Positions 16,445 to 61,249 of a DNA stretch of 64,000 nucleotides are shown one piece after another. The notes under the pieces are model-generated. The model saw nothing but the letters and a program-made list of their open reading frames with translations, did no database searches and was not told the DNA's origin. Origin of the DNA: an uncultured candidatus Brocadiaceae bacterium (lineage in GTDB: Bacteria > Planctomycetota > Brocadiia > SM23-32); contig CAZEAP010000010.1 in assembly GCA_964510315.1 (NCBI GenBank), positions 22,201-86,200 of the forward strand, read 5' to 3'. The position numbers and the translations under genes were made by a program. Each line of letters starts with the position of its first letter. Positions within the stretch are counted from its first letter, which is position 1.

Positions 16445-17746
16445 GACAAGGCCCAGGACGTAGAAGATGGTCCGCACGCGGGGACTGCGCCTGAACCTGG
16501 CGAAGTAGGTCACCGCGTAGTAGGCCACCAGCGGCGTGAATCCGATATACCACCGGAACCCGAAGCACGCGCCGGCGAAGTTCGTGGGGGCGAAGAAAGA
16601 GTAGTAGACCACCAGAAACAGGATGCCGAAGAGGACCGTCAGGGCGGCGTAGGCGCGTCCGGCGCGGGGATCGGGACGGGCCATAAAGCGTCGGCGTCCC
16701 GCTCGGTCCGCCTCCCCTTTTCTCCCGTCGGCTATCTGCCGGGCAAGCCCGGCGGCGCCCACAAGCAGGATCGGGCTGACCACGAACAGCCCCCGCCCGC
16801 TGAACAGCGTTAGCAGCCAGTACTTGCAGCGCGATATGTCCCAGGCGTCGGGGCCGATGGGAGCCTTCCAGTAGGCGCCGGCGTAGTCCTTGGTGCCCCC
16901 GATCATCTGCACGGGCAGTATGCTGCCCCAAAGAGAGTACTGCACAACGCAGTGAACGGCCAGCGGGGGGATGCTGCCCAGGCCGAAGAGCACAAGCACC
17001 GGCAGGGACCGAAGGTAAAGCACGATATAGAGCCCAAACATGATGGCGAAGATGAAACCGTGGCCGATGTCCACCACGGTGGCCAGACCCATCAGGAAAC
17101 CTGCGGCGGCGGCCTTCGGCAGAGAAACCTTCGGCGATCCCTCCGCCATGCCCAGCAGGAAGAAGGAGATCAGGATAAGCGCGGCGGTGAAGGTGTGGTG
17201 ATTCATCGTCGTCGAATAGGTGAGGAACAGCGTCCCGCCGAGGGTCAGGACGGTTGCTATGTCGGCCTCGATGCCCTCCAGCAGATCGCCCGCTTTCCTG
17301 CGGAAGACGTAGAAGGAGGCCGCGCTCACACCCCCGATGACCAGCCAGGTGAGCAGAAACGTGGGAACCGCAGCGGCCCTCCCCTGGAAGCTGAATTCCG
17401 CGCCGATCCCCTCGAAGACCTCCAGAACGCCGGCCAGCAGAAGTGTGAGCACCGGCGGCTTGGAGGAGTAGAGATGCCCGTCGCGCCGGTTGTACACCAG
17501 GTCGTTCATGGCGTGGTAGACTTGACCGCCCCGCCGGTCCATCATGTGCGCATGCGGGCTGCCGTCCACGTGGAAGACCGCCCGGTTCACCAGGCTGTCC
17601 ACCGCCACGAAACGGGACAGATCGTTCTGGCCGAGGATGCCCCGGTGAGTGAACGCGAACAGGAACAACAGCACCAGGAGGGCGAACCGCAGTGAACGCG
17701 CCCGCTCATCCCTTCCCTCTCCCGGCCCTTTAAGGTTCAGCGACAT
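16343..17746 (-). CDS. GT-C fold membrane glycosyltransferase (ArnT/PMT-like, GT39/GT83-like)
   Basis: The true start is ATG at 17746 (MSLNLKG...), 2 nt after the upstream gene's stop. It is a polytopic membrane protein with an early periplasmic-loop acidic motif (FVAVDSLVNRAVFHVDGSP). The track ORF 16343..18715 carries a 323-aa spurious N-terminal extension. Confidence 0.55.
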   Translation of the reverse strand: MSLNLKGPGEGRDERARSLRFALLVLLFLFAFTHRGILGQNDLSRFVAVDSLVNRAVFHVDGSPHAHMMDRRGGQVYHAMNDLVYNRRDGHLYSSKPPVLTLLLAGVLEVFEGIGAEFSFQGRAAAVPTFLLTWLVIGGVSAASFYVFRRKAGDLLEGIEADIATVLTLGGTLFLTYSTTMNHHTFTAALILISFFLLGMAEGSPKVSLPKAAAAGFLMGLATVVDIGHGFIFAIMFGLYIVLYLRSLPVLVLFGLGSIPPLAVHCVVQYSLWGSILPVQMIGGTKDYAGAYWKAPIGPDAWDISRCKYWLLTLFSGRGLFVVSPILLVGAAGLARQIADGRKGEADRAGRRRFMARPDPRAGRAYAALTVLFGILFLVVYYSFFAPTNFAGACFGFRWYIGFTPLVAYYAVTYFARFRRSPRVRTIFYVLGLVSLLFALIGLQSPWRLMENNLHPAVRFLMLLRGF

Positions 17747-27089: not shown

Positions 27090-28298
27090 ATGGCCGTCAC
27101 CTTTGCCGAACGAGTCCACAATCTGCTGTGGGAGCAGGAGGATCTGCTGGAGCGCCGGAACGAGATCGATGAGAGGTGGTCCAACGGTATCTTCGATAGA
27201 TGCCGTTACCCGGTCCTCACCCGCCGGCACGTGCCAGTCCGGTGGCGCTACGACCTCAACCCCGAGACCAATCCCCTTCTGTTGGAACGCCTCGGGGTCA
27301 ACAGCGTGTTCAACCCGGGAGCGATCCGCCTGGGACCGCACATCTGCCTGGTCTGCCGCGTGGAGGGATACGACCGCAAGTCATTCTTCGCCGTGGCCGA
27401 GAGTGATAGCCCGGTTGACCGCTTCCGTTTCCGGGATTACCCCGCCCTCATCCCGGAGAGCCCGGGCCCCGCGACCAATCTCTACGACATGCGTCTGACG
27501 CGGCACGAAGACGGCTGGATCTACGGAACGTTCTGCGTGGAACGGCCCGACCCGGATGCCGCGCCGGGCGACACCTCCAGCGCCGTGGCCGGCTGCGGCA
27601 TCGCTCGAACCAGGGACCTGGAGGAATGGGAACGCCTGCCCGATCTCCGTTCCGACGCCCCCCAGCAAAGGAACGTCGTCCTTCATCCGGAGTTCGTGGA
27701 CGGCCGGTACGCCTTCTACACCCGGCCGCAGAAGGGCTTCACCGGGACCAACTCCGCCGGTGGCATCGGCTGGGCCCTCTGCGAGGACATTGAGGATCCC
27801 GCGGTCGCCGAGGAAAAGATCATCGACCCGCCCGTCTACCACACCGTCAAGGAGGTGAAGAACGGGGCCGGGCCGCCTCCGCTGAAGACCGATGAAGGCT
27901 GGCTCCACCTCGCCCATGGCGTGCGCGATACGGCCGCCGGGCTCCGCTACGTGCTCTACGCCTTTCTCTGCGACCTGGAGGACCCGAGCCGGGTCACCCA
28001 CCGGCCGGGCGGCTACCTGATCGCCCCGAAGTTCGAGGAACGGATCGGCGACGTCAGCAACGTCGTATTCTGCAATGGCGCTGTCGTCGGGGACGATGGC
28101 GACGTCCACATCTATTACGCCTCCAGCGACACCCGCGTCCACGTGGCCGCCACTACGATCGAGAAGCTTCTGGACTATTGCCTGAACACGCCGGAGGACG
28201 CGGGGCGCTCGCGGGGCTGTGTCGAGCAGCGGATGGAGCTGATCCGCCGCAACGAGGAAGCCCTAAAGAAGCTGGGGATGGAGGCTGAGGAATTCTGA
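27090..28298 (+). CDS. GH130 beta-1,4-mannoside phosphorylase-like
   Basis: N-terminus [43 protein letters not shown] closely resembles characterised 4-O-beta-D-mannosyl-D-glucose phosphorylases. Confidence 0.85.
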
Positions 28299-28580: not shown

Positions 28581-28656
28581 GGGCGCATAGCTCAGTGGCG
28601 AGAGCGCTACCTTCACACGGTAGAAGTCGCAGGTTCGAGTCCTGCTGCGCCCACCA
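28581..28656 (+). tRNA. tRNA-Val (anticodon CAC)
   Basis: GGGCGCA-TA-GCTCAGTGGCGAGAGC-G-CTACCttCACacGGTAG-AAGTC-GCAGGTTCGAGTCCTGC-TGCGCCC-A-CCA. Canonical 76-nt cloverleaf. Confidence 0.9.
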
Positions 28657-28659
28657 TTT

Positions 28660-29412
28660 CTACGTCCGCTCCCAGGCGGCCAGCGCCTCCTCCAGAATGG
28701 CGGCCATCCGGCGGACCTGAAGCTCCACGGCCCGCTGACCCCGCTCCGGCGACGCGTGCTCTCGGGGGTCCTCGCCGTTGACCGACACCGGCCAGGTGTC
28801 CCGATCCTCCGGCAGGTTCTCCATCTGCACCAGTTCCGGCCGGAGCGCCATCACCAATGACGTCTCGTTGGCGGCAGCGTGATCGGTCTGGATCCCCAGG
28901 CCGTCCGACTCGTCCTCCCGCCAGCAGATGAACAGCCGCAGGCCGAGCTCCTCGCTCCACCGGTCGATGTGGTCGCGGAAGCAGTTCGTGGACGGACCGT
29001 GTCCGTGACCGACCACCACGCGGAACCCCGCGCGACTGAGCTGTTTCAGTATGGCCTCCAGCAGCCGCTCGAACAGGTCGTGGGGCACCCAGTAGGCGCT
29101 GCCCGGCAACTGCAGCGGCTCGCCGTCCTGACCGTTGGTGTCGGCGTAGTCCATGCCGTAGAACTCCCTGCCGTCCACCTCCCTCCGCCGGTCGGGGCCG
29201 ACGAAAAGCTTGGGCAGCACGATGCCGCCGGCCTCCCGCGCCAGCTCTACGAAGAAGCCCTGGCTCTGCAGCCCGTCCGACCCGAGCGGCAGGTGCCTTC
29301 CGTGCCACTCCAGCGTCCCCAACGGAAGGTAAGCGATGGGGGCCTCCGCCAGTCGCGCCGTGAAATCCGGGGGCGTCAGTTCCGCGTACAGCACCTTCTC
29401 ATCCGCGTTCAC
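28660..29412 (-). CDS. Creatininase-family amidohydrolase
   Basis: LPLGTLEWHGRHLPLGSD motif of the creatininase/ArfB family. Confidence 0.75.
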   Translation of the reverse strand: MNADEKVLYAELTPPDFTARLAEAPIAYLPLGTLEWHGRHLPLGSDGLQSQGFFVELAREAGGIVLPKLFVGPDRRREVDGREFYGMDYADTNGQDGEPLQLPGSAYWVPHDLFERLLEAILKQLSRAGFRVVVGHGHGPSTNCFRDHIDRWSEELGLRLFICWREDESDGLGIQTDHAAANETSLVMALRPELVQMENLPEDRDTWPVSVNGEDPREHASPERGQRAVELQVRRMAAILEEALAAWERT

Positions 29413-29431
29413 AGATTCCCTCCTCCCAAGA

Positions 29432-29773
29432 TCACCGGGCTACGGCCTTCCATTTCCGCTGAAGGATAGCGTACACGCAGGTGTCGCGCCATCGCCCCGA
29501 ACATGAATAGCAGGGATCGTAGGCCCGCACGAGCATCTCGCAGCGTCGGCGGATCTCTTCGGTCGGGCGGTGGGCCACCTGTCCCACCAGTGCCTTCATG
29601 TCCTCCTCCAGGCCGAGGAAGTTGTGGGCCGTCGGAGCGACGATGTTGGCGCCGGTTACCTCCCCCTTGCGTGTAGCTTTCACGGCCGCCGGCCGGACAT
29701 TGCCCCCGTCCGGCCCAAAGCAGCCGGTACAGATTGGATTGTGGCTGAGGCCGGAAAAGCCGCCAAGCGTCCG
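29432..29773 (-). pseudogene. Orphan fragment resembling the C-terminal ~70 aa of a [NiFe]-hydrogenase large subunit
   Basis: GANIVAPTAHNF...ALVGQVAHRPTEEIRRRCEMLVRAYDPCYSCS parallels the IVAPTTWN ... DPCxxC C-terminal nickel-binding region of NiFe large subunits. The frame is closed by a stop 30 codons upstream of the GTG start (29683). No N-terminal 400+ aa of a hydrogenase is present. Confidence 0.4.
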
Positions 29774-29835
29774 TCACCCGCCCCTGCCCTGTGGCTCCGA
29801 GTTCGACGGGTGGGAACACGCCGATCCGCCACGCC

Positions 29836-30771
29836 TCACTCGCCGGCCTCAGGCCGGTCGCGCAGCAGGGCCTCCAGGTGTTCCGGAACGTGGGTGGGCT
29901 CCTCGGGCACCGGGCATACTCGCACGCAGTCCCCGCGGACCGGGGCATGCGGCCTGCCCTCCCGCCGGCGCCGGCACAGCGTGGGATCGGTCCTCACCGG
30001 GGTATCGATGAAGATGTCCTCCCGGTCTACTTCCTCCACGAACCGATAGTCGCGGCAGGACGCATCGTCCCTGAGCGTGATGGCGTCCATGTAACAGGCT
30101 TCCAGGCAGAGCCGGCAGTCCTCGCGGAGGCAGATGGGTTCGTCAATCAACGGGTCGGGCACAAGAGGCGCTTCGGTCACGATGGAATTGAAACGCTGCC
30201 GCGGGCCGAACTCGCCCGTGAGAACGAGGTTGTTGTAGCCGAACTCGCCCAGGCCGGCGCGGGTGGCGGCGTGGCGGTGGGAGAAGGGCCCGAACGTGTA
30301 GTTGAACGGGCTGTGGCCCTCCCAGATTTCCTTGTCGCTCATGCCCTCAACGCGGGGATGTATGCCGGTGGTGGGGAAGATCATGGTTCGATAGCCGCTG
30401 CGGAGCAGAAGCTGTCCGATGACTTGGGCTATCAATTCCAGCATCACGTCGTGGAGGGCGTGCCCAACGCGGTTGTACAACAGTTCCATGTAGGGATATT
30501 TGGCGTGCTCGGGGATCATGGGCAGCTCCCGCTCGGCCAGCACCGCGGGCGCGTCCAGGACGGGTCCAAGGATGGGCTGGGCGATCGAGACGACCGACCG
30601 TGCGCCGGGCAGGAAGTCCCGGGGACGGTGCCCCTCGGGGGGCGTATCCCCCAGGGGCGGCCTCGGCTCGAAACGGTCAACGGACGCCACGCCTACCAGC
30701 GCCGCCCCGTGGTCTTTCGTTACCTCCTTGACCCTGCAGGTCAGTTCTTCGGAAGAACTCGGCTCCGTCAT
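29836..30771 (-). CDS. QueG/reductive-dehalogenase-like 4Fe-4S dicluster protein
   Basis: N-terminal domain [12 protein letters not shown], central [43 protein letters not shown] and Cys clusters [14 protein letters not shown] / CVRVCP. ATG at 30771 with GGGAGG RBS. Confidence 0.65.
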
Positions 30772-30855
30772 CTGCGCCTCCCGCCCTCTGCGCGTAGGAA
30801 TACCGCGAACCCGTGCATCATAGGGACAGCCTGGCGGCGCGGCAAGAGCGAGCCG

Positions 30856-31176
30856 CGCCACGCCGAGGCGGTTCGGGTGGAGTATGATCCTTCGAAGGTT
30901 TCCTACCGGGAGCTTCTGGACGTGTTTTGGAGCAGCCATAACCCAACGACGCCGAACCGCCAGGGATTCGACGTTGGTTCACAGTACAGATCGGCCATCT
31001 TCTACCACGACGGGAGTCAGGAGGCCGCCGCCAGGGCTTCAAAACGGGAACGGGAGCAGGCCGGAAGGTTCAGCTCGCCGATCGTGACCGAGATCGAGCC
31101 GGCATCGCGGTTCTGGCCGGCCGAAGACTACCACCAGTGCTACCTGGCCAAACGGCGAGGCGAGCCGGTGGAGTAA
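30856..31176 (+). pseudogene. msrA: 3' fragment of peptide methionine sulfoxide reductase MsrA (catalytic N-terminal half missing)
   Basis: [62 protein letters not shown]...[25 protein letters not shown] aligns with the C-terminal ~105 aa of MsrA. The GCFWG active-site region is absent in all frames, and its expected position is occupied by the minus-strand gene 29836-30771. Confidence 0.6.
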
Positions 31177-31211
31177 ATAGCTTGCCGGGGGCGCTGAGGG
31201 GCTTGCTGCAT

Positions 31212-32750
31212 CTACTCCGAGGTATCCCGCTGGAACATCCTGGGTGTTTCGGGAGACTCGGCGAGCATCTGGGCGCCGCGCCCCACCACGGCCTGAGACA
31301 CGATGCCCTCGACGGTGCTGCCGCTGCCGATGATGCTTTCACTGACGTGACCGTCGCGCACGACGGCACCCTCCATGATGATCGAGTCGCGGACGGTTGA
31401 GTTGCCAACACTTGCTCCGGGGCCGACGTACACGTGGGGCCCAACGCGGGCACTTTCCAGGACGGCCTCTTTGGCAATCTGCGCCGGTCCCTTGATATGG
31501 GTTTCCGAATCGTGTCTGCCTCTTCGAGAGTCAACGAGAAAATGCCGATTGGCGTCGAGAAGCTTCCTCCGGGTGCCGACGTCGAACCAGGGCTCGGTCG
31601 TCAGGTGACCGGCCAGCGGGACGCCGCTGACGACCAGCCAGTGCATGAAGCTGCCGAGGCTGTACGGATCGCCGCCACCCTTGAGGTACTTCGGCAGGGA
31701 GTCAACTTCCTCCTCACGTAGGAAGTAGCAGGCGGTGCTGATGTTCAGAAACGCGGGTATTTCCTGCTTCTCCGTGAACTCGCTCACCGTTTCGTCGGAA
31801 TCGAGGGTGGCTACGCCATACTGGCTGACGTCGCTGCCCGTCTCGAACCTGTAGAGGGCATTGGCGCTGGTACCCTTGCGAGCAGCAAAACGCAGGAACT
31901 CATCCAGTGCGAAGCTAAACACGTTATCTCCGCCCAAGACGACGACATCGCGAGGTCCCTGCAGATTCACCGCGTAGTGGAGCGCTCCTATAGGTCCAAG
32001 ATTTCCGCCGGAGTCGCTCACTGGCTCGGCAATCACCTCAGCGTCCTCGGTGCCCACACGCGTGAGAAACGCACGGATATCTTCCTGAAACTCTCGGTTG
32101 GTCAAAAGGTAAGTACGACGGACGGAGCTACAGTCCCGGATAAAATCCAGGACGTAACTGAGAACAGGTTTGCCGGCAACAGGCAGCAGAACCTTGCAGA
32201 AGTCCAGCGTCAGCGGCCACAGCCGGGAACCGGAACCGCCGCAAAGCACGATGCAGTCCACATCAGGCGGGCCCGAAGCGCGAATCTTCGGAAACGCTGC
32301 AACTATTTTGGCGCGCAAGTCGTCGGGCGTGGTGAAGAAGTTCACCGTCACACGCTCGGAGACCTTGTGTCGGAACGCCTTCTGATCCTGCCAACGGCCG
32401 TCCTCGATGAGCAGGTTGGCCGGAACAGGGAAGTCTTCTGCCGACAGAAGCATAAGACAGGGCTTGGACAGCTCTTGGGCTACCTCGAACTCCAGTTCAG
32501 TGAAGCTGATCTCGGTGCCCTTCGGGCTGCTGCCGTAGCACGGCCCCAGGAGGCCGACGAAGACGTCACAGTTCCCTATCTGCTCCCGACAGTAATCGGC
32601 CGGAGTTTGGTGGTCGACCGTGAAGTCCTCCATCCGAACGCAGTGATGGCCCATGGACTTGACGGCCTTCTCTGCCGCGTCGCGGTATGCCAACAGGTCT
32701 TTGGTAGTGGAGCTGAGGAACACGGTTTTGGGGTTGTTGTCTGCAGTCAT
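31212..32750 (-). CDS. DUF4062-domain / sugar-1-phosphate nucleotidyltransferase / left-handed beta-helix fusion protein
   Basis: N-terminus KTVFLSSTTKDLLAYRDAAEKAVKSMGHHCVRMEDF...CDVFVGLLGPCYGSSPKGTEISFTELEFEVAQEL matches the DUF4062 family (VFISSTxxDLxxER ... SYTELEY). Then an NTP_transferase core (LCGGSGSRLWPLT, GGDNVF, EKQEIP, WFDVGT), then hexapeptide repeats. ATG at 32750 with GGAGA RBS. Confidence 0.7.
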   Translation of the reverse strand: MTADNNPKTVFLSSTTKDLLAYRDAAEKAVKSMGHHCVRMEDFTVDHQTPADYCREQIGNCDVFVGLLGPCYGSSPKGTEISFTELEFEVAQELSKPCLMLLSAEDFPVPANLLIEDGRWQDQKAFRHKVSERVTVNFFTTPDDLRAKIVAAFPKIRASGPPDVDCIVLCGGSGSRLWPLTLDFCKVLLPVAGKPVLSYVLDFIRDCSSVRRTYLLTNREFQEDIRAFLTRVGTEDAEVIAEPVSDSGGNLGPIGALHYAVNLQGPRDVVVLGGDNVFSFALDEFLRFAARKGTSANALYRFETGSDVSQYGVATLDSDETVSEFTEKQEIPAFLNISTACYFLREEEVDSLPKYLKGGGDPYSLGSFMHWLVVSGVPLAGHLTTEPWFDVGTRRKLLDANRHFLVDSRRGRHDSETHIKGPAQIAKEAVLESARVGPHVYVGPGASVGNSTVRDSIIMEGAVVRDGHVSESIIGSGSTVEGIVSQAVVGRGAQMLAESPETPRMFQRDTSE

Positions 32751-32853
32751 GGCTTTTCTATCTCCGGTTGCCGATCCCTCAAAAATAAGCCCGGCTAAGC
32801 CGGCTCGCGACGCCACAATGATAGCAGGAAAGTCCGTCCCGGGAAACCGGGTC

Positions 32854-35433
32854 TCACAGCTTATACACCTCCAGGCCGGCTTCTCCGAGTACTTCCGGCC
32901 AGTCCCGGACTGCCTGGCGGTCGTATTCTTTGATCTTCTCGGGTAGTTCCTCCCAGGGGACGAGATAGGGACTCACTTTGACTTTGGCGTCGCGTCGCGG
33001 ACCGTAGCTCCACCCCGCGCGGAGCCTTTCGAGAATCCAGCGCCCGTGCTCCATCTCGGCCATGGTTTCCACTTCCTCGTCGGTGAACTGCACGGAGGCG
33101 GGCTCGCCCTCGGCCTCCCCCACGCCGTATCCGATGCGGCGGAGCGTCTGCTCGGCGTAGGCGGCCTGCTGGCGGTTGGACTCTTTCAGGTCCTCGCGCA
33201 GTTCCTGCCACGGCACCATCGCCGGATCGGCACTGCGGTAGCGGTTCTCCTCCAGGAACCGCTCGTGTACGGCCTTGCCCGCCCTTTCGACCAACTCGGC
33301 GGGTATCTGCGGTGTGGCGGGATTGACGAACGCCCGAACCGCCGCCGGGTCGGGGGGCAGCCAGATCAGCCGGGAGGCCGGCCACCAGCGGCGTTCCTCT
33401 CGCAGTTCCGAAGCGCTGCGACCGCTGGACTCCACCACACCCACTGTGGCGCCGAGGGCGAGGGCCAGCCGCGCCTCAAAGCCCGTGATGGGACCGCCGT
33501 TGATCACCAGCACGCGCACGTCGGCGGGGTCGACGCCGGCCGCGATCAGGTCAATCCAGGACTGCAGCGGTTCGAGGGCGGTGAAGTCCCGCGTGTGAGG
33601 CTCCGCCCTTCCCCTTCCCATGTCGGTCGTCACCTGCACCTCGTATCCCTCGTGCAGCTTCACCTCGTCGGGGAGCGGCGGCATGAAGAAGGGCCGGTAG
33701 CCTATGCGCCGCACCTCGTCGGCCGGTCCTTCGGTGGCATCGGCGGCCAGGCCGCTGACCCCGGCCGTGGTGCCGCCACCGACGACGATGCCCCGGAACC
33801 CCTCAAACGCTTCCCGCAGCATTTCGCGGTATTGCTGCATCTCCTGTTCAACGCTGGCCGCACAGCCGCCGCTGACCATCGCGACATCGCCACTGACCGG
33901 GCTGAGGTCCGCCGATACCAGGCCCTCCAGCTCCTCCGTCCGCTCCCGTACCTCGCCGGGCATCTGTTTCTCACGCTCCGGCTCACCGCTGGCCTCCCGG
34001 CCGGCCGCCGTGACAACCACGGCAAGCAGCAGGAATCGGCGCACCGCTTCGATCGCCCAGTTCAGGTCCGCGAACGCGGGCATTTCAGGCAGCGACCGAA
34101 GGATGGGTTTCTCATAGTGCTCGACCGAGCGGAGCGCCAGGCAGATGGGCGTCGGGCTCGCACTGAGTTCGATACCCCGCGCGTAGGCGGCAAGCGCCTG
34201 GTAAGGACGGTCCAGCAGCAGGGCGAATGTCCCCATGTCGTAGAAGGCCCAGGGCAGGTAGATCTCTACCTCGGCCCAGTCCCGGCAGGTCTCCACGGCC
34301 GCCTCGAGGCTGGGGCGCATCAGCGAGATGAACTCGACGTCGCCTACGAAACCGGTCTTACACTCCAGATAGTTCGCCAGCACGTGAGCGTCACCGGGGG
34401 CGGCCTCGAAGGCGCGTTCGTAGTAGTGTAGGGCTTTTTCCGGCTCCTCCTCCCAGGTGTCCCCCAGCGCGCAGAGGGCGTCGGCATCGGTGGGGTCCAG
34501 CGCGACCGCGCGTTCCAGCTCGGCCCGGCCGCCTTCGCCGGCCTGATGTTTGGCCAGGCCGAGGTCCCGCAGGACGGGCGCGGAGCCGGAGTGACGGAAC
34601 GGCTCCAGGACTTCCATCGCCTTCTGCCAGTCTTCAAGCGAGATGGCGAGGGCGGCGATTCGGTCCGCAAGGTCCGAGTTTTCCCGGTCGTAGCGGAGCA
34701 CCATCTCCCACTTGGCTATCTCTTTGCGCATCTCCTCAGGGTCCATGTAAGCGCCGTAGTGGGATTTGTAGGCGTCCAGGGCCTCGACCGCTCGTCCGAA
34801 CTGGCCGTCCGCGTCCTCCAGGAGCGCAGCGACACGCGCCAGTTCGCGCCGGAACCTGTCCGGCACGTCGAACTCGCTCTTGTAGACCCTGTCGTGGCTG
34901 ATGCCCGCCCAGGCGTGTTGCAGGAGGGTTCGCACCTGGATCTCCGCCTTGCGTTCGCCGATCCGTTCCAGCACGTCGATCCCGCCCTTCCGGCGGCTCA
35001 CCTCCTCGATAGCCTCTTCCAGGCAGGGCCTGTCGCCGCGAAGCTGCACGACGTAATGCACGGAACGATAGCCAAACTCCTCCGGCCGCAGCCTCCGGAG
35101 CACGTCCATGCTGTTGGCTTCATCGATCCGAAAGTTCTCCCGGACGAACCGGCAGATTCGCCGGACTTCCGGCTGCGTCTGGGTGATGACGCGGGCGCCG
35201 CACAGATCGGTCATCTGGGAGACCGGGGCGCTGTAGCGGTCGCTTCTGCGGACGATCTTCTCGGCGAAGCTGGGTATGCTCTTGGCGCGGGTCTGCACGA
35301 TGCCGACCGTCTCGCAGTCCTTGCAGGCGCGGGTAAGGGCCTCCGAGAGCACATCGGCGTAGAGCACGTAACGGGGCCGCTCTTCGGAGTACCTTTCCAC
35401 CTGCCTCTCATGTTCTACCGGGTCTACAGGCAT
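32854..35433 (-). CDS. RelA/SpoT-domain (alarmone-synthetase-like) protein with TPR, LOG/SLOG-like and C-terminal RyR domains
   Basis: 859 aa, no HD hydrolase domain. N-terminal synthetase motifs TRAKSIPSFAEKIVRR, TDLCGARVI, GYRSVHYVV and EIQVRTLLQHAWAGISHDRVYK. Central TPR-like helices. A Rossmann-like region VVGGGTTAGVSGLAA...INGGPITGFEARL fits the LOG/SLOG GGGxxG / PGGxGTxxE pattern. C-terminus EHGRWILERLRAGWSYGPRRDAKVKVSPYLVPWEELPEKIKEYDRQAV matches the RyR domain (GWSYG). ATG at 35433 with GGGAG RBS. Confidence 0.7.
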   Translation of the reverse strand: MPVDPVEHERQVERYSEERPRYVLYADVLSEALTRACKDCETVGIVQTRAKSIPSFAEKIVRRSDRYSAPVSQMTDLCGARVITQTQPEVRRICRFVRENFRIDEANSMDVLRRLRPEEFGYRSVHYVVQLRGDRPCLEEAIEEVSRRKGGIDVLERIGERKAEIQVRTLLQHAWAGISHDRVYKSEFDVPDRFRRELARVAALLEDADGQFGRAVEALDAYKSHYGAYMDPEEMRKEIAKWEMVLRYDRENSDLADRIAALAISLEDWQKAMEVLEPFRHSGSAPVLRDLGLAKHQAGEGGRAELERAVALDPTDADALCALGDTWEEEPEKALHYYERAFEAAPGDAHVLANYLECKTGFVGDVEFISLMRPSLEAAVETCRDWAEVEIYLPWAFYDMGTFALLLDRPYQALAAYARGIELSASPTPICLALRSVEHYEKPILRSLPEMPAFADLNWAIEAVRRFLLLAVVVTAAGREASGEPEREKQMPGEVRERTEELEGLVSADLSPVSGDVAMVSGGCAASVEQEMQQYREMLREAFEGFRGIVVGGGTTAGVSGLAADATEGPADEVRRIGYRPFFMPPLPDEVKLHEGYEVQVTTDMGRGRAEPHTRDFTALEPLQSWIDLIAAGVDPADVRVLVINGGPITGFEARLALALGATVGVVESSGRSASELREERRWWPASRLIWLPPDPAAVRAFVNPATPQIPAELVERAGKAVHERFLEENRYRSADPAMVPWQELREDLKESNRQQAAYAEQTLRRIGYGVGEAEGEPASVQFTDEEVETMAEMEHGRWILERLRAGWSYGPRRDAKVKVSPYLVPWEELPEKIKEYDRQAVRDWPEVLGEAGLEVYKL

Positions 35434-35795
35434 GGCGGCTCCCTTCTTCTAAGTTATGCAGGTCTCCCGGTGCAGCGCCGGCTCGGACGCGGTGGGCCGG
35501 TGAACTCCGACCGTCTGCCGCGTTCGAAAGCTAAGCGACGACTCCGGCGTCCTCGACCTCTACCTGCTCCGGCGATACGTGGTTGTCTACCGGATGGGGT
35601 CGCCCGGACAGTGGCGCCCCGTGAGTCAGACTGCTTTCGCCTCTCCCAAGCTGCGCCGTTTCAGCCTTTCGGCAACCGCACAGGCAAAGGCGACGTGCCC
35701 GCGTCGGCTTTCGGCGCGATGAAGCTTCCATACATATAAGGCAAAGCGGGCACTTTGGAAAGAAGAAAAGGCATGACTCGCGAGGGTTCCGCAGG

Positions 35796-36494
35796 TTACA
35801 TGGCCTCGTAAAGAACGTCCACGTGCCCATTTTGAGATGCCTCTGCCACCTCGTCCACGGCGCCCCTGTACTGCGCCAGCTTGGAGCCGCCGAAGATGCG
35901 AAACAGGACGGCGGCAAGATTGTGGTGTGTTTCGATCACAGCGTCCGGGAAATGGGATTCGCGGAGCGAGTTTTGGACGTAGAAGGCGTGGCTCTCCAGC
36001 AGCGTCATCACCGGCTGGACGGCTTGCACTTTGGCCAGGGCCTCCCGGGGGGAGCCGCCTCCTTCCGAAAGGAGGGCGGAGGCCTGCCGAATCGCCTCGT
36101 CCACGCGTTCGAATAGATTCCCGTGGTTGACGTGCTGGCCCCGGTGCACCAGTTCGTGGGCGACCACCAGTCGCAGTCCGTTCAGATTGCTCTCGTCCAC
36201 GTTCTCGCGGACCACCAGCAGCTCCGCGCTGCTGGGCTCGTATGCGGCCAGCGCATTGTTCTCCACCACGTATTCAAGCAGTCGCTCCAGCAGGCCGCGT
36301 CCGGTGTCTTCGACCGGAACCCCCGCCCCCCGCAGCCTCCCGAGTACAAGTTCCTCATAGCCCCGGTCTTTCGGGAGGACGCGCTCGCCCATGTCGTCTG
36401 CGTAAATGGCCCACTCGGTGGCTTCCTCGACCAGTGGGGCGACTTGTTCGGCCAGGCGACTCACAAGCTTTTCGGTGATGTTGATTTGGGCCAT
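35796..36494 (-). CDS. HExxH-motif putative zinc metallopeptidase
   Basis: VVAHELVHRGQH zinc-binding motif; ATG at 36494 with GGAGGA RBS. The track's longer N-terminus, starting at 36587, is unlikely. Confidence 0.5.
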   Translation of the reverse strand: MAQINITEKLVSRLAEQVAPLVEEATEWAIYADDMGERVLPKDRGYEELVLGRLRGAGVPVEDTGRGLLERLLEYVVENNALAAYEPSSAELLVVRENVDESNLNGLRLVVAHELVHRGQHVNHGNLFERVDEAIRQASALLSEGGGSPREALAKVQAVQPVMTLLESHAFYVQNSLRESHFPDAVIETHHNLAAVLFRIFGGSKLAQYRGAVDEVAEASQNGHVDVLYEAM

Positions 36495-36528
36495 TTGCTT
36501 CCTCCGCCGTGTCGGCGGGTTCGAGGTC

Positions 36529-38481
36529 TCAGAATGCGGGCACGGCGCCGCGGGTGACGGTCCGGACCAGCGTGGAGATTCCACCAACTGACGCCTCGGC
36601 GACGATAAGGGCTATGAAGAAGTAGCGCGCCTGACGCAGTTTCCCCCCGCCGAACAGCTTCATGATTCCCATCTTGCAGAGCCATCCCAGCAAGAAGGGG
36701 AACCATAACCTGTGGGCGTGCCAGCTATGGCACGACAGCAGGCCGATGGCGTGAATCGGCCACCAGTAGAACCGGGCGCGCATGTACATAAAGAACGTCA
36801 TGCCGCCGGCCCCCAGCAGCAGCGACTTGGGGTATGCCTTGGCGGCCGCGGAGCCCTGCTTTATGATGCGCTGAGCCGAGTCCATGCGCCACTTCGGTTC
36901 CGCAGTCTGCGCCCACCAGTCCGAATAGTTCGCGCCCCCCATGCGGTAGGCCGTGTTCAGGGAGGTCCACGTCCCGCAGAGAAGCGCCACCAGGAAGGCC
37001 ACCATCAGGATGGGGACGAGGAGACGACGTTTGGCGGGCTTGAAAACGTCGGAGATGCGGAAGGCGTTGATGGCCATGGGCGCCAGGTAGGCGGTGCCGC
37101 CGGTGATCAGCAGAGGGTCCTGAAGATTCGTGATGACCGCCCCGGCCGGTCCCAGCGCCCGGCCTCCCGTTATGCCATGGATGAATTCCGGCAGGCGCCA
37201 GGTCGTCCTCGCCACGTAGAGTCCCGCCTGGGCGACCACGCGCGCGTAAACCAGGTACCAACAGATGATCATCGCGAAGGCGGCAACCGCCGCCGGCCAC
37301 CGCATGCCGTGGTAGGCATACCATCCGAGGCATGCCCCCAGCGTGACGAGAGAACCCCAGAACCCCAGGCGGTAGCCGACCGGCTCACCGCTGTCGTCGG
37401 CGTCCTTCAGGCCGAGGGCCTTCCGCAGCACCACCCACAGGTGCCGGCGGGCCATGAACAGTATTCCGGCGGTGAAAGCGATGTAAGCGCCGGCCTGCTG
37501 CCAACGCATCAGCGGTTTGCGCAGATGCCCCAGCCCCAGGTAGTGGGCCGTCTGCAGTTCCATCCTGGCGACCAGGTAGAAGACCCAGATGCTCAGCGAG
37601 ACGTCGGCGGGCACAAGGAACGCGAAGCCCACCGCGGAGGTCCACAGGTTGAAGTTCTGAAAACCCATCGGCTCCAGGGGCGTTCCCGCCAGCGCGTCCT
37701 TTATCGGGAGGGGGATATGGAACGCGGGACCGGCGCCGAAGATGACGGGCAGCGCCCTGATGAAACGGAAGCTGAGCGCGAAGACCAGCCCGACGATGAA
37801 GCCCTTCTGGGTGAACGCGGCGGGAAGCCAGCGGCGTTCCGCGCTGCCCTGGGTGAACTCCAGGGGCACGCGGGCCAGTGGAAACATCAGTCGCTCCGAC
37901 TCCACCCACTGCCGGCGCAGGATTCCCATCAGGAAGAAGATGAACAGGTACAGGGCGATGAAGAAGACGCCCCAGTGGATCAGCGGTCGCATCCAGCGTC
38001 CCCACGGCACCCGCTCCCATCCGCCCTTGAAATAGCGGGCGGCCGCCACGGAGCGCGGGTCGTTGCTCAACACCAGCTCTTCGGGCGCGTGGGTCAGCGC
38101 GCCGTCGTCCTCCCAGGCGACGTCCGCGCGCCGGGCGAGATACGACGGAGCCGCCGTAAAGGAAAACCAGAAGCGGGCCAGCCCGTCGCCCGGGAACGTG
38201 GCTCCGACGATCAGCATGCACCAGACCAGCATCAACTCCGCCTGGCTCAGCTCCCAGCCGCGTCGGACCAGCTTGATCAGGAGGTTCACTCCCACCGTCA
38301 GTATGACCAGCACGAGCACTGCCCCGCCGGGGAAGGCCGTCCCGCTGAAACCGCCCCATCCCTTGGCCCAGCTCACCCAGGGCTCGAGCAGTGCTATGCC
38401 CGCCACGAAGAAAAGGCCGATGAGGAAGGCCCGCCAGGTCACGATGCGCTCCGCGATTTGTGGTGGATCGTCCGGGGTCAA
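36529..38481 (-). CDS. Large polytopic membrane protein of unknown function
   Basis: 650 aa and more than 12 predicted TM helices by hydrophobic-segment inspection. No recognisable catalytic motif. Confidence 0.55.
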   Translation of the reverse strand: MTPDDPPQIAERIVTWRAFLIGLFFVAGIALLEPWVSWAKGWGGFSGTAFPGGAVLVLVILTVGVNLLIKLVRRGWELSQAELMLVWCMLIVGATFPGDGLARFWFSFTAAPSYLARRADVAWEDDGALTHAPEELVLSNDPRSVAAARYFKGGWERVPWGRWMRPLIHWGVFFIALYLFIFFLMGILRRQWVESERLMFPLARVPLEFTQGSAERRWLPAAFTQKGFIVGLVFALSFRFIRALPVIFGAGPAFHIPLPIKDALAGTPLEPMGFQNFNLWTSAVGFAFLVPADVSLSIWVFYLVARMELQTAHYLGLGHLRKPLMRWQQAGAYIAFTAGILFMARRHLWVVLRKALGLKDADDSGEPVGYRLGFWGSLVTLGACLGWYAYHGMRWPAAVAAFAMIICWYLVYARVVAQAGLYVARTTWRLPEFIHGITGGRALGPAGAVITNLQDPLLITGGTAYLAPMAINAFRISDVFKPAKRRLLVPILMVAFLVALLCGTWTSLNTAYRMGGANYSDWWAQTAEPKWRMDSAQRIIKQGSAAAKAYPKSLLLGAGGMTFFMYMRARFYWWPIHAIGLLSCHSWHAHRLWFPFLLGWLCKMGIMKLFGGGKLRQARYFFIALIVAEASVGGISTLVRTVTRGAVPAF

Positions 38482-38655
38482 CCGGGGATTATATCGAGAG
38501 CCATGCGTCAGACAACCGCGCGCTCCGGGGGGAAAACGGTGGCGGGCACCGGAGTTTGCCCGCCCCCTTCCCGGCCGGTGGAGTGAACGAGGGCTTCCCG
38601 TGGATGCAGAGTCGCGGCACGCGCCGGGCCTCGGCGCGCTGAGGATAGCTTACGC

Positions 38656-38883
38656 ATGGAGGAATGGGAGAGGGAGTATCGATGCCTGGGAAGATCAGGC
38701 TTGCAGGTCAGCGCCGTATCGCCGGGTTCCCGGCGCACGTTCGGGCAGCGAGTGGACGACGCGACGACGCGGCGGTGCATGGAACTCGCCGTCGAGGACA
38801 ACGTGCAGGCCGTGGAGGTCGTCGAGCAGCTCACCGAGGAAGTGCTGGCCCGAATCGAGGATATCCTCGGCAACAAGCCCTGA
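38656..38883 (+). pseudogene. Internally deleted aldo/keto reductase (Kv-beta/Tas-like) remnant
   Basis: 75 aa: EYRCLGRSGLQVSAVSPGSRRTFG...ELAVEDNV resembles an AKR N-terminus and ...LTEEVLARIEDILGNKP an AKR C-terminus; the ~250-aa catalytic barrel between them is missing. Confidence 0.55.
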
Positions 38884-39520
38884 CGCCCCGCCGGGAGTCC
38901 GCGGAAAGCGTGACAGCGTGAGATCGCGAGACCGAATCCTCTGCACGCTGCGGCACAGCGAAGATGTCCGGGAAGGTATGGCACATCCAGGCGCCGCTGT
39001 CGTCCTGCCCGGAGTCGTCGTAGACCCGCACTTTTGATAGCAGTCTGTCTCGCACCTCGTCCGGGTAACGTTCATCGATATCCCACAGGGCCTGGGCCAG
39101 GGTGTTGGAGCCGGCGTTGACGGCGAAGTGCACAGGGCGTGCATCGTCTGCCTGTAGGGCTCTGATGATCAGCTCGGAGCCGGCCGTGCTCTTGCCGGTC
39201 CCAACCGCCTTCATTCCGTAACCGCGCTGTCCGCCGGCGGTGCGCTCCAGCAGATGCTCTCGGGTGGGCCAACCCGGTGCGTGCTGCAGCAGGTTAGGGC
39301 GAACCACGCCGTATGCCTCAACTCGGTCAGCGATGGATTCCGGATAGACCGTGTTGGGCAGCCAGCACGATGTCACGGCGATCAGACCTTCGATTTCGAG
39401 TTCATTGGCGTACATCAGCAGGTGAACCATGGTCTGCGAATCGTCGGGTTCGTTCTCCATGTCTGTCAGGATAATGAGACGGTAACGCTGTTTGGGTTTG
39501 CCTTTGGAAAGGAATCTCAT
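38831..39520 (-). CDS. DUF1593 (nucleoside-hydrolase-like, Sde182-type) domain protein, probably C-terminally truncated
   Basis: ILTDMENEPDDSQTMVHLLMYANELEIEGLIAVTS matches the NH-like domain of DUF1593 proteins. ATG at 39520 with AAGGAGG RBS. The C-terminal ~40 aa look like frame noise and overlap the AKR remnant. Confidence 0.5.
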   Translation of the reverse strand: MRFLSKGKPKQRYRLIILTDMENEPDDSQTMVHLLMYANELEIEGLIAVTSCWLPNTVYPESIADRVEAYGVVRPNLLQHAPGWPTREHLLERTAGGQRGYGMKAVGTGKSTAGSELIIRALQADDARPVHFAVNAGSNTLAQALWDIDERYPDEVRDRLLSKVRVYDDSGQDDSGAWMCHTFPDIFAVPQRAEDSVSRSHAVTLSADSRRGVRACCRGYPRFGPALPR

Positions 39521-40023
39521 AGGACCTCCTTGTTCCCGAGCAGTATCGAAGGGGCAACAGATGAGAGCCGTGCGCTTAGGCAAAGCCCCGCGCATCGTAT
39601 ACTGCGGCAATCTCGAAAGACAAGCGTAGCCATTCACGGGCTTTCTGAGAATCTGCCCTCCGCCGTTGCGTATGCTGTCGGGCATGGCACCAAAGACTCC
39701 TACAGCCGAATGCCCGAACTGCAAACGGTTTGCAGGCCGCGTGGCCCAACTGGAGGTGCTCGTGCTGAAGCTCCAGGGCCGTATCGTGGAGGTCGAGGCA
39801 AAAACCGCCCGGTGCCCGGCACGGCAAGAAGCGTTGCATGGGCGGCCAGCCCGGTCATCGTCGCCACGAGCGCCCGTCTTTTCCGCCCGAACAGATCGAC
39901 CAGACGCGGCGGTATCGGCTGGAGCGGTGTCCCCGCTACGGCGGGCCGCTGCAGAGGTCCTGGGAGCGGCCCCCTGCGTCCGGCAGGTCGAGCTAACCGA
40001 CTCGAATTCAGCGGAGGAATCCC

Positions 40024-40878
40024 ATGGCGAAGAAACGTAAGCTGAGCGTGCTGGACCTGCAGAGGATGAAGGACGAGGGCGAGCAGGTGGTGTGGGTGAC
40101 CGCCTACGACTACATCACCGCCCAACTGGCCGAAAAGGCCGGAATGGACATGATCCTGGTCGGCGACAGCCTGGGGATGTGCATCTACGGCTATCCGGGC
40201 ACCATACCCGTGACGATGGACCAATGCATCTACCACTGCGAGGCCGTCCGGCGGGCCGCGCCGAACACGTTCATCATCGGCGACATGCCGTTCGGCTCTT
40301 ACCAGGTCAGCGCCGAGAAAGCCGTCGAGAACGCCATCCGTTTCCACAAGGAGGCCGACGTGGACGCCGTCAAGCTCGAAGGCGGCGAACGCGTGGCGGA
40401 CGTGGTAGAGGCCATCGCCGAAAGCGGCATGCTGGTGATGGGCCACCTGGGCCTGACGCCCCAGTCATCGAACGCGCTGGGCGGCTTCAAAGCACAGGGC
40501 CGGACGGCGGAGACGGCGATGGACGTGATCCGCGACGCACGGGTGATCCACGAGGCCGGCGCCTTCTCCATACTCATCGAAGCCGTGCCGCCGGCGGTCA
40601 CTGCAATCATCCGCGAGGAGCTGCCGGTGCCCATCTACTCGATCGGGGCCGGCTCCCACGCCGACGGTCAGCTCATGATCTGCTCCGACATAATCGGCCA
40701 TTTCCAGGCATTCACCCCGAAGTTCGTCAAACGCTACGGCGACGTCGCGGGCGAGATCAGCCGCTCGTTCGAGCAGTACGCCGAGGAGGTCCGAGGCGGC
40801 CAGTTCCCCACCGAGGACTATGCCTACAGCATGATCGAAGGCGAGCTGGACAAGCTGCGCGACCTGATGGAGGGGTGA
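40024..40878 (+). CDS. panB: 3-methyl-2-oxobutanoate hydroxymethyltransferase
   Basis: Full-length PanB (GDSLGM, MPFGSY and other motifs). Confidence 0.9.
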   Translation: MAKKRKLSVLDLQRMKDEGEQVVWVTAYDYITAQLAEKAGMDMILVGDSLGMCIYGYPGTIPVTMDQCIYHCEAVRRAAPNTFIIGDMPFGSYQVSAEKAVENAIRFHKEADVDAVKLEGGERVADVVEAIAESGMLVMGHLGLTPQSSNALGGFKAQGRTAETAMDVIRDARVIHEAGAFSILIEAVPPAVTAIIREELPVPIYSIGAGSHADGQLMICSDIIGHFQAFTPKFVKRYGDVAGEISRSFEQYAEEVRGGQFPTEDYAYSMIEGELDKLRDLMEG

Positions 40879-59709: not shown

Positions 59710-61249
59710 CTTTTTGTGCTCCCGCTTTCCAGTTTGTGCGATCCCAGCCCTGATAGAAGTCCGCCAGCGCCGGGCCGACGAGGCGATAGTGCTCGTAGAG
59801 CTTCTCGTATTGGTCGGCCGCTTCCGACGGCTCCACCAGTTCGGCCTCGGCGGGGAGTTGTTTCTCTCCATCTCGGATGGAATCGAAGCGACCGGCACCG
59901 GTCCATGCGGCCACGGCGGCGCCGACAGCCGTGGCTTCGGCGCGCCCGCTGACGGCCAGGGGCAGACCGCAAACGTCGGCCCGCAGTTGGTTCCACAGGG
60001 GGTTGCGTGAGCCGCCCCCGACCACCCGGAGCCGCTCGGGGCGGAACTCGATGGCCTCAATCAGAATCTCCAGCGCGTCGCGCAACTGAAAACACAGCCC
60101 TTCCAGCGCGGCCCGGTAGACATTGGCCCGCCCGGTGTTCAGCCCGAGACCCAACAGGGTCCCCTCCGTCCCGTACCTGCGGGACGGCCCGGTGTCCGAT
60201 ACCAGGCTGGGGGCCATCATCAGACCTCCGGCGCCCGGCTGGACCCGGCGGGCTTCGCCGATCATGGTGCGGTAGGCTTCCTGCCGGTCCTCCAGTCCCG
60301 GATAAAAGTTCTCCCGCACCCACTCCAGGGCGCCCGATCCCATCATCAGAAGCTGGGGGTTATACAGGCCACGCGCGGCGTCCGCCTCGGTCAGGACGCC
60401 GCCCTCGAAGGCGCGATCCCCGTCGACCGGGGCGGGCGCCCTGAGCATGGCGATCTCCCAGGTCCCCGTGCTGAGAACGGCTTCCCGCGGCATCGCCCCG
60501 CTGCCCACGGCGGCGAACTGAGTGTCGTGCCCGGCTGCCGCAACAGGAGTGCCCTCCCGGAGGCCCGTCTCCCGGGCCGCCTCGGCGGTCAGCTCGCCGA
60601 TCTTCTCGCCCGGATACACGAGGGGCGGGAAGAATGATTCCGTCACGCCCACCGCCCCGAGCAGCTCTTCCGACCACGTGCGCTCCGCCAGGTCGAGCAT
60701 CATCATCGTCGAGGCGCTCGTGATGTCCAGGCTTCTGTTGCCGGTCAAAAGGAAGCTGAGCAGTCCGGGCATCATCAGCCACCTGTCGGCTCCGTCGAGG
60801 GCCTCCGGGTGGTTTTGCCGCAGCCAGGCCAGTTTGAACAACGTGTTAAACCGGATCACCTGGTAGCCGGTAATGCTGAAGAGGCGACGCGGGCCGATCC
60901 GTTCGGAAAGGCCTCGTGCGACCTCCGTTGTGCGGGGGCATTGCCAGGCGATGGGCGGATACGTCAGGCTGCCGTCGGCCCTCACCGGAGCACCGTCCGC
61001 GCCCCAGGTGGTGACGGCCACGGCCTGCACGGCGCCGGCACTCACCTGCCCGACCACCTCCCTGCAGCCGGCGCAGACGCGCCGCCACAGCCCCTCCGGG
61101 TCCCAGACCAGCCAGTCCTCCCGGCCGCCGGGCTGGGGAACGGGCGCGTTGGGCCGGGAGGCGGCGCAGATCAGCTCGCCGCTTTCAGTCAGCGCCGCAA
61201 CGTTGATATTGGTGGCACCGCAGTCCGCCACCAGGACGACTTCTTTCAC
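59699..61249 (-). CDS. FGGY-family carbohydrate kinase (fuculo/rhamnulokinase-like)
   Basis: LVADCGATNINVA N-terminus, AAGHDTQFA and GGGSRNPLWNQLRADV FGGY signatures. Confidence 0.8.
   Translation of the reverse strand: MKEVVLVADCGATNINVAALTESGELICAASRPNAPVPQPGGREDWLVWDPEGLWRRVCAGCREVVGQVSAGAVQAVAVTTWGADGAPVRADGSLTYPPIAWQCPRTTEVARGLSERIGPRRLFSITGYQVIRFNTLFKLAWLRQNHPEALDGADRWLMMPGLLSFLLTGNRSLDITSASTMMMLDLAERTWSEELLGAVGVTESFFPPLVYPGEKIGELTAEAARETGLREGTPVAAAGHDTQFAAVGSGAMPREAVLSTGTWEIAMLRAPAPVDGDRAFEGGVLTEADAARGLYNPQLLMMGSGALEWVRENFYPGLEDRQEAYRTMIGEARRVQPGAGGLMMAPSLVSDTGPSRRYGTEGTLLGLGLNTGRANVYRAALEGLCFQLRDALEILIEAIEFRPERLRVVGGGSRNPLWNQLRADVCGLPLAVSGRAEATAVGAAVAAWTGAGRFDSIRDGEKQLPAEAELVEPSEAADQYEKLYEHYRLVGPALADFYQGWDRTNWKAGAQKDES

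Follow-up and report, generated by a model that had tools for sequence, protein, structure and literature searches.

Chromosomal segments in which pseudogenes, insertion sequence (IS) debris, and defense genes lie together beside tRNA genes are already well known, and two described kinds of locus offer the closest comparisons. Genomic islands associated with tRNA genes, such as the integrase-mediated pathogenicity or defense islands of tRNA and tmRNA genes, are found at tRNA 3′ ends, carry accessory or defense-type cargo along with IS remnants and pseudogenes, and break synteny. Chromosomal flexible regions and defense islands are places of high gene turnover that belong to no single mobile element; there, the same kinds of remnants gather along with IS debris and genes of immune type, enclosed by conserved housekeeping genes. 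Here we examine a segment that recalls both: positions 28581 to 40023 of a 64-kb window (throughout, the whole stretch of 64,000 nucleotides analyzed, from contig CAZEAP010000010.1 of an uncultured candidatus Brocadiaceae bacterium), which runs from a tRNA-Val(CAC) gene to the edge of panB and in which a preliminary description had seen a possible decayed genomic island. Unlike tRNA-associated islands, this segment has neither an integrase nor attL/attR sites, is mostly of native composition, and has boundaries that cannot be defined. It differs from typical flexible regions and defense islands in that just two defense-type genes are mixed with metabolic and transport genes and the collections searched hold no close genome in which variability across strains would show.

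With moderate confidence, we read the segment as a flexible region of the chromosome in which insertions and deletions concentrate, rather than as a recognizable integrase-borne island. The island proposal holds insofar as this is a region of gene flux, with gene remnants, a dead IS66 element, and accessory genes on the 3′ side of a tRNA gene. It is not supported as regards integration at tRNA-Val itself.

Five gene remnants between tRNA-Val and panB

Because the window is ~65% G+C, its raw lists of open reading frames (ORFs) are dominated by spurious frames; we chose genes by third-position GC content (GC3) and checked them by Pfam, NCBIfam, PADLOC, and PDB sequence searches. Every element named in the preliminary description was recovered at or near the place assigned to it (Table 1), and the four genes that it had called decayed, encoding a NiFe-hydrogenase large subunit, MsrA, an aldo-keto reductase (AKR), and a DUF1593 protein, were each verified as remnants by homology. 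With a piece of an IS66-family transposase, five verified remnants lie between tRNA-Val and panB. All five cover their family profile only in part and have full-length proteins as their closest homologues.

The remnants make up 15% of the segment, and intact genes together with the tRNA account for 74% of it, versus 92% of the rest of the window. When the other large intergenic gaps in the window were scanned with Pfam in six frames, no gene fragments appeared, the sole match being an intact NifU-like gene of 75 amino acids (aa). With the first remnant conditioned on, the probability that all five would fall within 11.4 of 64 kb is (11.4/64)^4, or ~1e-3. The clustering exceeds chance, and the unusual pseudogene density reported earlier is borne out. 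In their correct frames the remnants have a moderately high GC3 (0.73 to 0.82), and the decay is therefore fairly recent and the genes had been adapted to a high-GC genome.

Table 1. Features of the segment and its borders (window coordinates)
Feature	Position	Strand	Evidence
tRNA-Val(CAC), left border	28581-28656	+	ARAGORN; Rfam tRNA 72.5 bits; 3′ end toward region
Creatininase-family amidohydrolase, intact	28660-29412	-	Pfam PF02633 1-237/238, E 1e-27
NiFe-hydrogenase large-subunit C-terminal remnant	29435-29683	-	PDB, NCBIfam
311-aa Fe-S protein, seemingly intact	29836-30771	-	TIGR02486, PDB
msrA 3′ remnant	30850-31176	+	Pfam PMSR, TIGR00401
DUF4062-NTP_transferase-LbH gene, intact	31212-32750	-	Pfam, NCBIfam
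859-aa RelA/SpoT-TPR-(SLOG)-RyR gene, intact	32854-35433	-	Pfam, PDB, PADLOC
232-aa hypothetical protein, HExxH motif (HELVH)	35796-36494	-	Gene call also in independent assembly
DUF6785/DUF6784 polytopic membrane protein, intact	36529-38442	-	Pfam E 5e-103
AKR6/Kv-beta-type aldo-keto reductase remnant	38656-38883	+	PDB 8hw0, TIGR01293
DUF1593/Sde182 nucleoside-hydrolase-like remnant	38831-39520	-	Pfam PF07632
IS66-family transposase N-terminal remnant	39684-40010	+	Frame analysis, HMMER
panB (ketopantoate hydroxymethyltransferase), right flank, housekeeping resumes	40024-40878	+	Pfam E 1e-103

The hydrogenase remnant corresponds to residues 365 to 422 of the 428-aa alpha subunit of sulfhydrogenase in PDB (E 8e-8) and to positions 363 to 420 of 426 in NCBIfam HydA. 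Its ~60 C-terminal residues keep the nickel-ligand motif DPCxxCxxR and a short C-terminal extension; the 5′ ~85% of the gene is gone, with nothing left upstream of the fragment, and Pfam searches of ORFs and six-frame translations found no hydrogenase partner genes in the segment. The neighboring Fe-S protein is related to the cluster-binding part of reductive dehalogenases and QueG (TIGR02486 RDH, positions 154 to 277 of 314, E 3.5e-9; PceA and QueG in PDB), its gene has native codon usage (z +0.2), and the same 311-aa gene is called in an independent assembly. This ~1.2-kb piece is bordered on both sides by cut 5′ ends, those of the NiFe gene (minus strand) and msrA (plus strand). The msrA fragment spans positions 46 to 148 of the 153 of Pfam PMSR (E 1e-38) and 50 to 147 of the 153 of TIGR00401; the first ~45 to 50 residues, including the catalytic Cys motif, are missing, there is no evident start, and the N-terminal piece is absent from all frames in a six-frame Pfam scan.

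At the other end of the segment, an AKR ORF of 75 aa joins two distant parts of one enzyme: residues 7 to 51 correspond to residues 2 to 46 of AKR6D1, and residues 46 to 75 to residues 294 to 323 of its 329 (PDB 8hw0, E 1.9e-10; TIGR01293 is also matched). An in-frame loss of ~250 codons has fused the N-terminal ~45 to the C-terminal ~30 residues, leaving an ORF with an ATG start and a GC3 of 0.82 that is devoid of the whole TIM-barrel core. An overlapping ORF, 38664 to 38921, was considered as the AKR frame and rejected, having a GC3 of 0.50 and no PDB match. The AKR remnant meets, at its 3′ end, the cut end of the DUF1593 gene, which covers only positions 1 to 180 of the 268 of PF07632 and is cut after residue ~187, near 38960; the 42 residues that follow are unrelated sequence, antisense to the 3′ end of AKR. 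Aligned with its closest homologues, the DUF1593 copy leaves the family right after FPDIF, where longer homologues run on through the conserved FPDIFYIRSR.QVFGLFGP...GPQPW, and it is for this reason that we regard the copy as truly truncated and not as a conserved short form. The C-terminal truncation described earlier is thus upheld, and the start is corrected, probably to the Met at 39520 (a 229-aa call, the same in the independent assembly). Many of the nearest homologues are also short, ending at differing, non-homologous points as if through independent frameshifts.

These short homologues form an observation of their own. Several close relatives of the DUF1593 copy (P0248-P0254 and P0278) are cut short with unrelated tails at different positions, and they lie on long contigs (up to 83 kb), one of the sequences on 19 contigs; either decay is frequent in this clade or its sequences readily pick up frameshift errors.

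The fifth remnant belongs to the IS66 family, in which full-length transposases (456 to 499 aa among the targets matched) consist of DUF6444, zf-IS66, and DDE_Tnp_IS66 domains. The preliminary description had raised a possible transposase N-terminal remnant in a single ORF, 39666 to 40040; that ORF has poor codon statistics and no Pfam or NCBIfam match. The remnant itself is real and lies split over two reading frames (39684 to 39809, 39823 to 39975, and 39978 to 40010 in a three-frame reading). Its 57-aa piece at 39823 to 39993 (plus strand) gave 189 hits at E ≤1e-3 in an exhaustive HMMER search, the best at 3e-13 with 75% identity, and aligns always at target residues ~60 to 130. The remnant thus resembles the N-terminal DUF6444/zf-IS66 part of these transposases but keeps only ~110 of ~480 residues, has two frameshifts and a mutated zinc-finger Cys (CPRYGG), and is devoid of the DDE domain and of accessory tnpA/tnpB. 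Pfam matched neither the frameshift-spliced sequence nor, in any frame of 38400 to 40060, a DDE_Tnp_IS66 domain; tblastn searches with the transposase piece gave no match on plasmids and only noise among the loci gathered for comparison. Only 13 nt separate the end of the remnant from the panB start codon, and a GGAGGA ribosome-binding site follows directly. Between the remnant and the DUF1593 start lies a noncoding stretch of low GC content (39521 to 39683; 0.53 to 0.58), which could contain the DUF1593 promoter, the left end of the dead IS, or both; no inverted repeat was identified in it, and the lineage has no reference element by which to define the IS ends.

Integration at tRNA-Val or piecemeal decay

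The 3′ end of tRNA-Val (28656) lies 4 nt from the first gene of the segment, a placement proper to an integrated island. The preliminary description had noticed no integrase and no obvious direct repeat of the tRNA 3′ end, and our searches agree with it on both counts. In Pfam searches of every ORF and of nongenic sequence translated in six frames, domains of integrases and recombinases are missing, even as fragments, and nowhere in the window does another site share more than 12 to 13 nt of exact sequence with the tRNA or its 3′ flank. The longest matches to the tRNA end, at 36907 (plus strand) and 26277 (minus strand), compare with ~0.7 expected by chance (~90 k-mers compared with 128 kb). 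Even with ≤3 mismatches allowed, the window holds no second copy of any 20-mer from the tRNA 3′ half, and a further repeat search found nothing better; there is, in short, no repeat of the tRNA-Val 3′ end above chance length.

Composition gives a similar picture. Scored against the 31 genes outside the segment, the creatininase, Fe-S, RelA/SpoT-RyR, and DUF6785 genes have native codon usage (|z| <2.3); the most host-like codon usage in the whole window is that of the creatininase gene adjoining the tRNA (GC3 0.90, codon z +2.2). Over 3-kb windows, segment and flanks are equal in tetranucleotide distance and dinucleotide delta* except at 30 to 33 kb (z 2.5), a tetranucleotide peak no more extreme than those at 14 to 17 kb and 23 to 26 kb. 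The only compositionally atypical gene in the segment is the DUF4062-NTP-transferase gene (GC 0.60, codon z −3.2, tetranucleotide z 2.5). The comparison of codon usage and composition that had been proposed as a check thus finds a segment that matches its flanks in all but this one gene, not the distinct composition of an island. Statistics indistinguishable from the flanks and the lack of an att repeat were the outcome that the preliminary description had itself set against an island, and on these two grounds the strict tRNA-island model is unsupported.

The strongest signature deviation of the window falls outside the segment altogether, at 14001 to 17000 (tetranucleotide z 3.6, delta* z 2.9), where it overlies two large membrane-protein genes.

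The flanks consist of housekeeping or carbohydrate genes: glycosyltransferases, tRNA-Gln, tRNA-Glu, a spermidine-synthase/TPR protein, and a GH130 enzyme (27090 to 28298) on the left and panB, phosphoglycerate mutase, homoserine dehydrogenase, a GH57 branching enzyme, and glgC on the right. Homologues of the DUF6785 and GH130 proteins bear labels such as "Candidatus Brocadiia bacterium" and "Planctomycetota bacterium." With GH130 as an anchor there are 598 relatives over many phyla, and in 80 loci examined no other gene of the window recurs. Relatives of panB at 85 to 87% identity keep the GH57 gene downstream and have PQQ-propeller, pectate-lyase-like, or sulfatase genes upstream, and the closest (90% identity) differs again in what lies upstream. 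No relative examined has the window's context on the panB side, and none shares the tRNA-side flank. The relatives reached through panB and DUF6785 are related at the family or genus level, and their neighborhoods are not conserved. The synteny break at panB is real but not specific to the segment, since GH130 and DUF6785 orthologues lack synteny too, those of DUF6785 at 70 to 75% identity lying in unrelated glycan-utilization neighborhoods. Among ~15 billion proteins clustered at 90% identity, each of the six from this genome that we looked up, whether intact or broken, stands alone, and the collections searched therefore hold no close genome.

A flexible segment of this kind would have formed piecemeal. 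Native, dispensable genes (the end of a NiFe-hydrogenase operon, msrA, AKR, and DUF1593) would have been cut by separate events of illegitimate recombination or rearrangement, leaving at least four junctions: between the NiFe 5′ end and the 3′ end of the Fe-S gene (~29684 to 29835), between the 5′ ends of the Fe-S gene and msrA (~30772 to 30850), within AKR, and between the AKR 3′ end and the DUF1593 cut (~38884 to 38960). An IS66-family element would have inserted upstream of panB and later been frameshifted, its DDE part being lost up to the panB ribosome-binding site. The permissive segment would then have gathered genes of biological-conflict type, namely the RelA/SpoT-TPR-RyR gene and the DUF4062 fusion, the latter probably the most recent arrival because it is compositionally foreign. 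The geometry of the junctions points to repeated illegitimate recombination in a dispensable segment between genes under selection (the tRNA and panB). We infer both this order of events and decay in situ, as opposed to the import of genes already broken.

Several points weigh against this account. Adjacency to a tRNA, an IS remnant, and defense-type cargo would also be expected of an old, ameliorated island. Three of the remnants have somewhat low GC3 (z −1.9 to −3.5), which could reflect foreign origin instead of relaxed selection. The collections searched hold no relative close enough to show intact versions of the broken genes at this place, so that in situ decay is presumed. The control scan outside the segment used Pfam only and covered intergenic gaps only.

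The foremost alternative is a classical island that entered the tRNA-Val 3′ end, was stripped of its integrase and attR by the deletions that also truncated its cargo, and has since mostly ameliorated to host composition. Such an island would begin where this locus does, just past a tRNA 3′ end that faces it, and would accommodate the IS66 remnant, the defense-type cargo, the one gene of atypical composition, and the variable context upstream of panB in relatives, although synteny is poor everywhere in the lineage. An independent assembly graph also breaks inside the tRNA: the contig ends at 28627, in the T-arm of tRNA-Val, and this could equally well mark a variable (strain-level) junction or reflect k-mers common to tRNA genes. 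In one comparison locus (L094), 39 nt likewise separate a RelA/SpoT-RyR homologue from the 3′ end of a tRNA-Arg gene, without a tRNA 3′ repeat there either. The six-frame absence of even an integrase fragment, the lack of a tRNA 3′ repeat longer than 13 nt in 64 kb, a signature for the whole region equal to that of its flanks, and the creatininase gene, touching the tRNA and with the most host-like codon usage, argue against this history, and we consider it unlikely.

Two further explanations would do away with the decay itself. The fragments might be functional short genes, such as a split hydrogenase peptide like VhuU or a mini-AKR: the VhuU model (NF041786) gives a weak match (E 8.6e-6) to the NiFe piece, which keeps its nickel-ligand motif, the AKR deletion is in frame within an ATG-initiated ORF of high GC3, and several of the closest DUF1593 homologues are short as well. 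Yet the segment holds no partner genes for a hydrogenase, the AKR ORF has no barrel core, the msrA piece has neither a start nor its N-terminal catalytic region, the short DUF1593 homologues end at non-homologous points where longer ones continue through conserved sequence, and the IS66 piece is frameshifted; the small ORFs are also singletons at 90% identity, though so are intact genes of this genome. This explanation is very improbable. An artefact of assembly or binning, in which a chimeric metagenomic contig mimics truncations, would suit the metagenomic source and the assembly break at the tRNA, but the identical sequence is present in an independent assembly of the same sample (run SRR7048227), where a Logan contig of 32.8 kb (SRR7048227_57758; locus L116) matches the window at 100% identity over 28627 to 50878 and covers every junction inside the segment, so that the junctions are not the artefact of one assembler. 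Neither composition nor codon usage shifts across the junctions, and chimeric joining does not yield an in-frame internal deletion or a frameshifted IS piece. We give an artefact the least credence of all.

The RelA/SpoT-RyR and DUF4062 genes

Two intact genes at the center of the segment, confirmed by Pfam as the RelA/SpoT and DUF4062 genes of the preliminary description, may be the conflict-type cargo of the region. RelA domains are found among the nucleotide-generating modules of NTP-dependent conflict systems, alongside partner types similar to those described below (PMC7159879). The window protein has an N-terminal domain like that of small alarmone synthetases (PDB GTP pyrophosphokinase 2be3, E 1e-10; also YwaC/YjbM-like), TPR repeats, a weak SLOG match, and C-terminal RyR repeats (PDB, E 1e-20), and it matches the PADLOC candidate PDC-S33 (E 2.6e-18). 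Its best homologues are full length, metagenomic, and only ~40% identical; their neighbors include a NUDIX hydrolase (in three independent contexts), tubulin-like and VWA-type proteins (in two), and HSP70/GrpE (in one). This distance and these neighbors suggest that the gene is accessory in nature. Like the RelA/SpoT proteins of conflict systems, toxic small alarmone synthetases among them, it carries the synthetase-like N-terminal domain, and its homologues sit beside NUDIX, tubulin-like/VWA, HSP70, and STAND genes; it differs in being a long fusion with TPR, weak SLOG, and RyR regions and in having no NUDIX partner, neither such a gene nor a remnant of one being found in the window.

The contexts of the homologues hold several details. 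A NUDIX gene stands directly beside the RelA/SpoT-TPR-RyR homologue in four of the gathered loci (L087, 1110 to 1517; L094, 9042 to 9548; L091, 12836 to 13303; L097, 865 to 1332), a recurrence that suggests a pair of synthetase and hydrolase. A tubulin-like protein (PF13809, ~970 to 990 aa) and a protein of ~740 to 780 aa (with VWA in L091) are encoded at 3705 to 8988 of L094 and 4361 to 9606 of L091; GrpE/HSP70 genes lie downstream of the homologue in L093; and in L089 (5244 to 9304) a DUF4062-NACHT/STAND gene and then one for a beta-propeller protein directly follow it. The tRNA-Arg(CCT) gene of L094 (12517 to 12590) turns its 3′ end toward the homologue, as in the window, and no att-like repeat was found within 22 kb.

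DUF4062, also called NIR, has been shown experimentally to be a TIR-like NADase effector of anti-phage systems, whose proteins typically combine this N-terminal core with a variable auxiliary region (2026 preprints). The window protein shares that plan with the NADases of Swarozyc, Evangelion, Avs2-NIR, Vulcan, and Vesta, and it shares their conflict-type neighbors: a complete DUF4062 domain (PF13271, 2-82/82, E 4.9e-22) precedes an auxiliary region that, unlike theirs, consists of an NDP-sugar-synthase-like NTP_transferase (Pfam, E 2.3e-27; NCBIfam rmlA_long-like) with an LbH region. Any NADase activity of the window protein is putative. A motif SFTELEFE at residues ~82 to 89 from the likely start lies near the place of the catalytic Glu (E87 in Eva01, E98 to E108 in others), a comparison by position and not by alignment. 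The combination of DUF4062 with an NDP-sugar synthase is unmentioned in the 2026 DUF4062/NIR preprints, and 72,556 plasmids gave no full-length match to the DUF4062-NTP-transferase protein.

We propose a defense role for both genes. The preliminary description had spoken of the two as a cassette; as a conserved pair this was rejected, since tblastn found no DUF4062-NTP-transferase gene beside the ~40%-identity RelA/SpoT-RyR homologues, and the pairing of RelA/SpoT-RyR with DUF4062 recurs at the domain level only, in the window and in L089. The DUF4062-NACHT gene beside the homologue in that unrelated contig hints at a functional link. It is conceivable, though we rate it as doubtful, that the two genes form a new two-gene anti-phage system in which an alarmone-type nucleotide is sensed and NAD+ depletion triggered; the nucleotide may come from the RelA/SpoT protein and the sensor may be the nucleotidyltransferase-like module.

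Remaining features and significance of the segment

The DUF6785 gene of the segment is typical of its lineage and belongs to a family that is multicopy in Planctomycetota metagenome-assembled genomes. In three relatives' loci (L119, L120, and L121) the DUF6785/DUF6784 proteins occur in multiple copies, as tandem triplets in L121, among glycoside hydrolases, sulfatases, and GFO/IDH/MocA oxidoreductases, which suggests a carbohydrate-related transport role for the family. In relatives these genes are often followed by one for a ~230-aa DUF8091 protein; the 232-aa HExxH protein of the segment was compared with these and rejected as a DUF8091 partner, and it matches no Pfam family and has only weak matches in PADLOC and NCBIfam. 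Elsewhere in the window, a 760-nt gap (61249 to 62008) holds an Rfam match to the Acido-Lenti-1 small RNA at 61678 to 61722 (plus strand; 41.6 bits, gathering score 37) and no convincing ORF; similar peptide strings of the PGRSPG type occur there in several frames and on both strands, and thus suggest repeated or structured DNA.

For the annotation of this genome the segment is a caution, in that five short ORFs or noncoding stretches are dead genes, and it is an example of how adjacency to a tRNA together with pseudogenes does not by itself make an integrated island. It also draws attention to two conflict-type proteins of Planctomycetota that have received little study. Of everything in the region, only the DUF4062 fusion next to the RelA/SpoT gene may be new; its joining of DUF4062 to an NDP-sugar synthase would extend the known architectures of the recently described DUF4062/NIR NADases.

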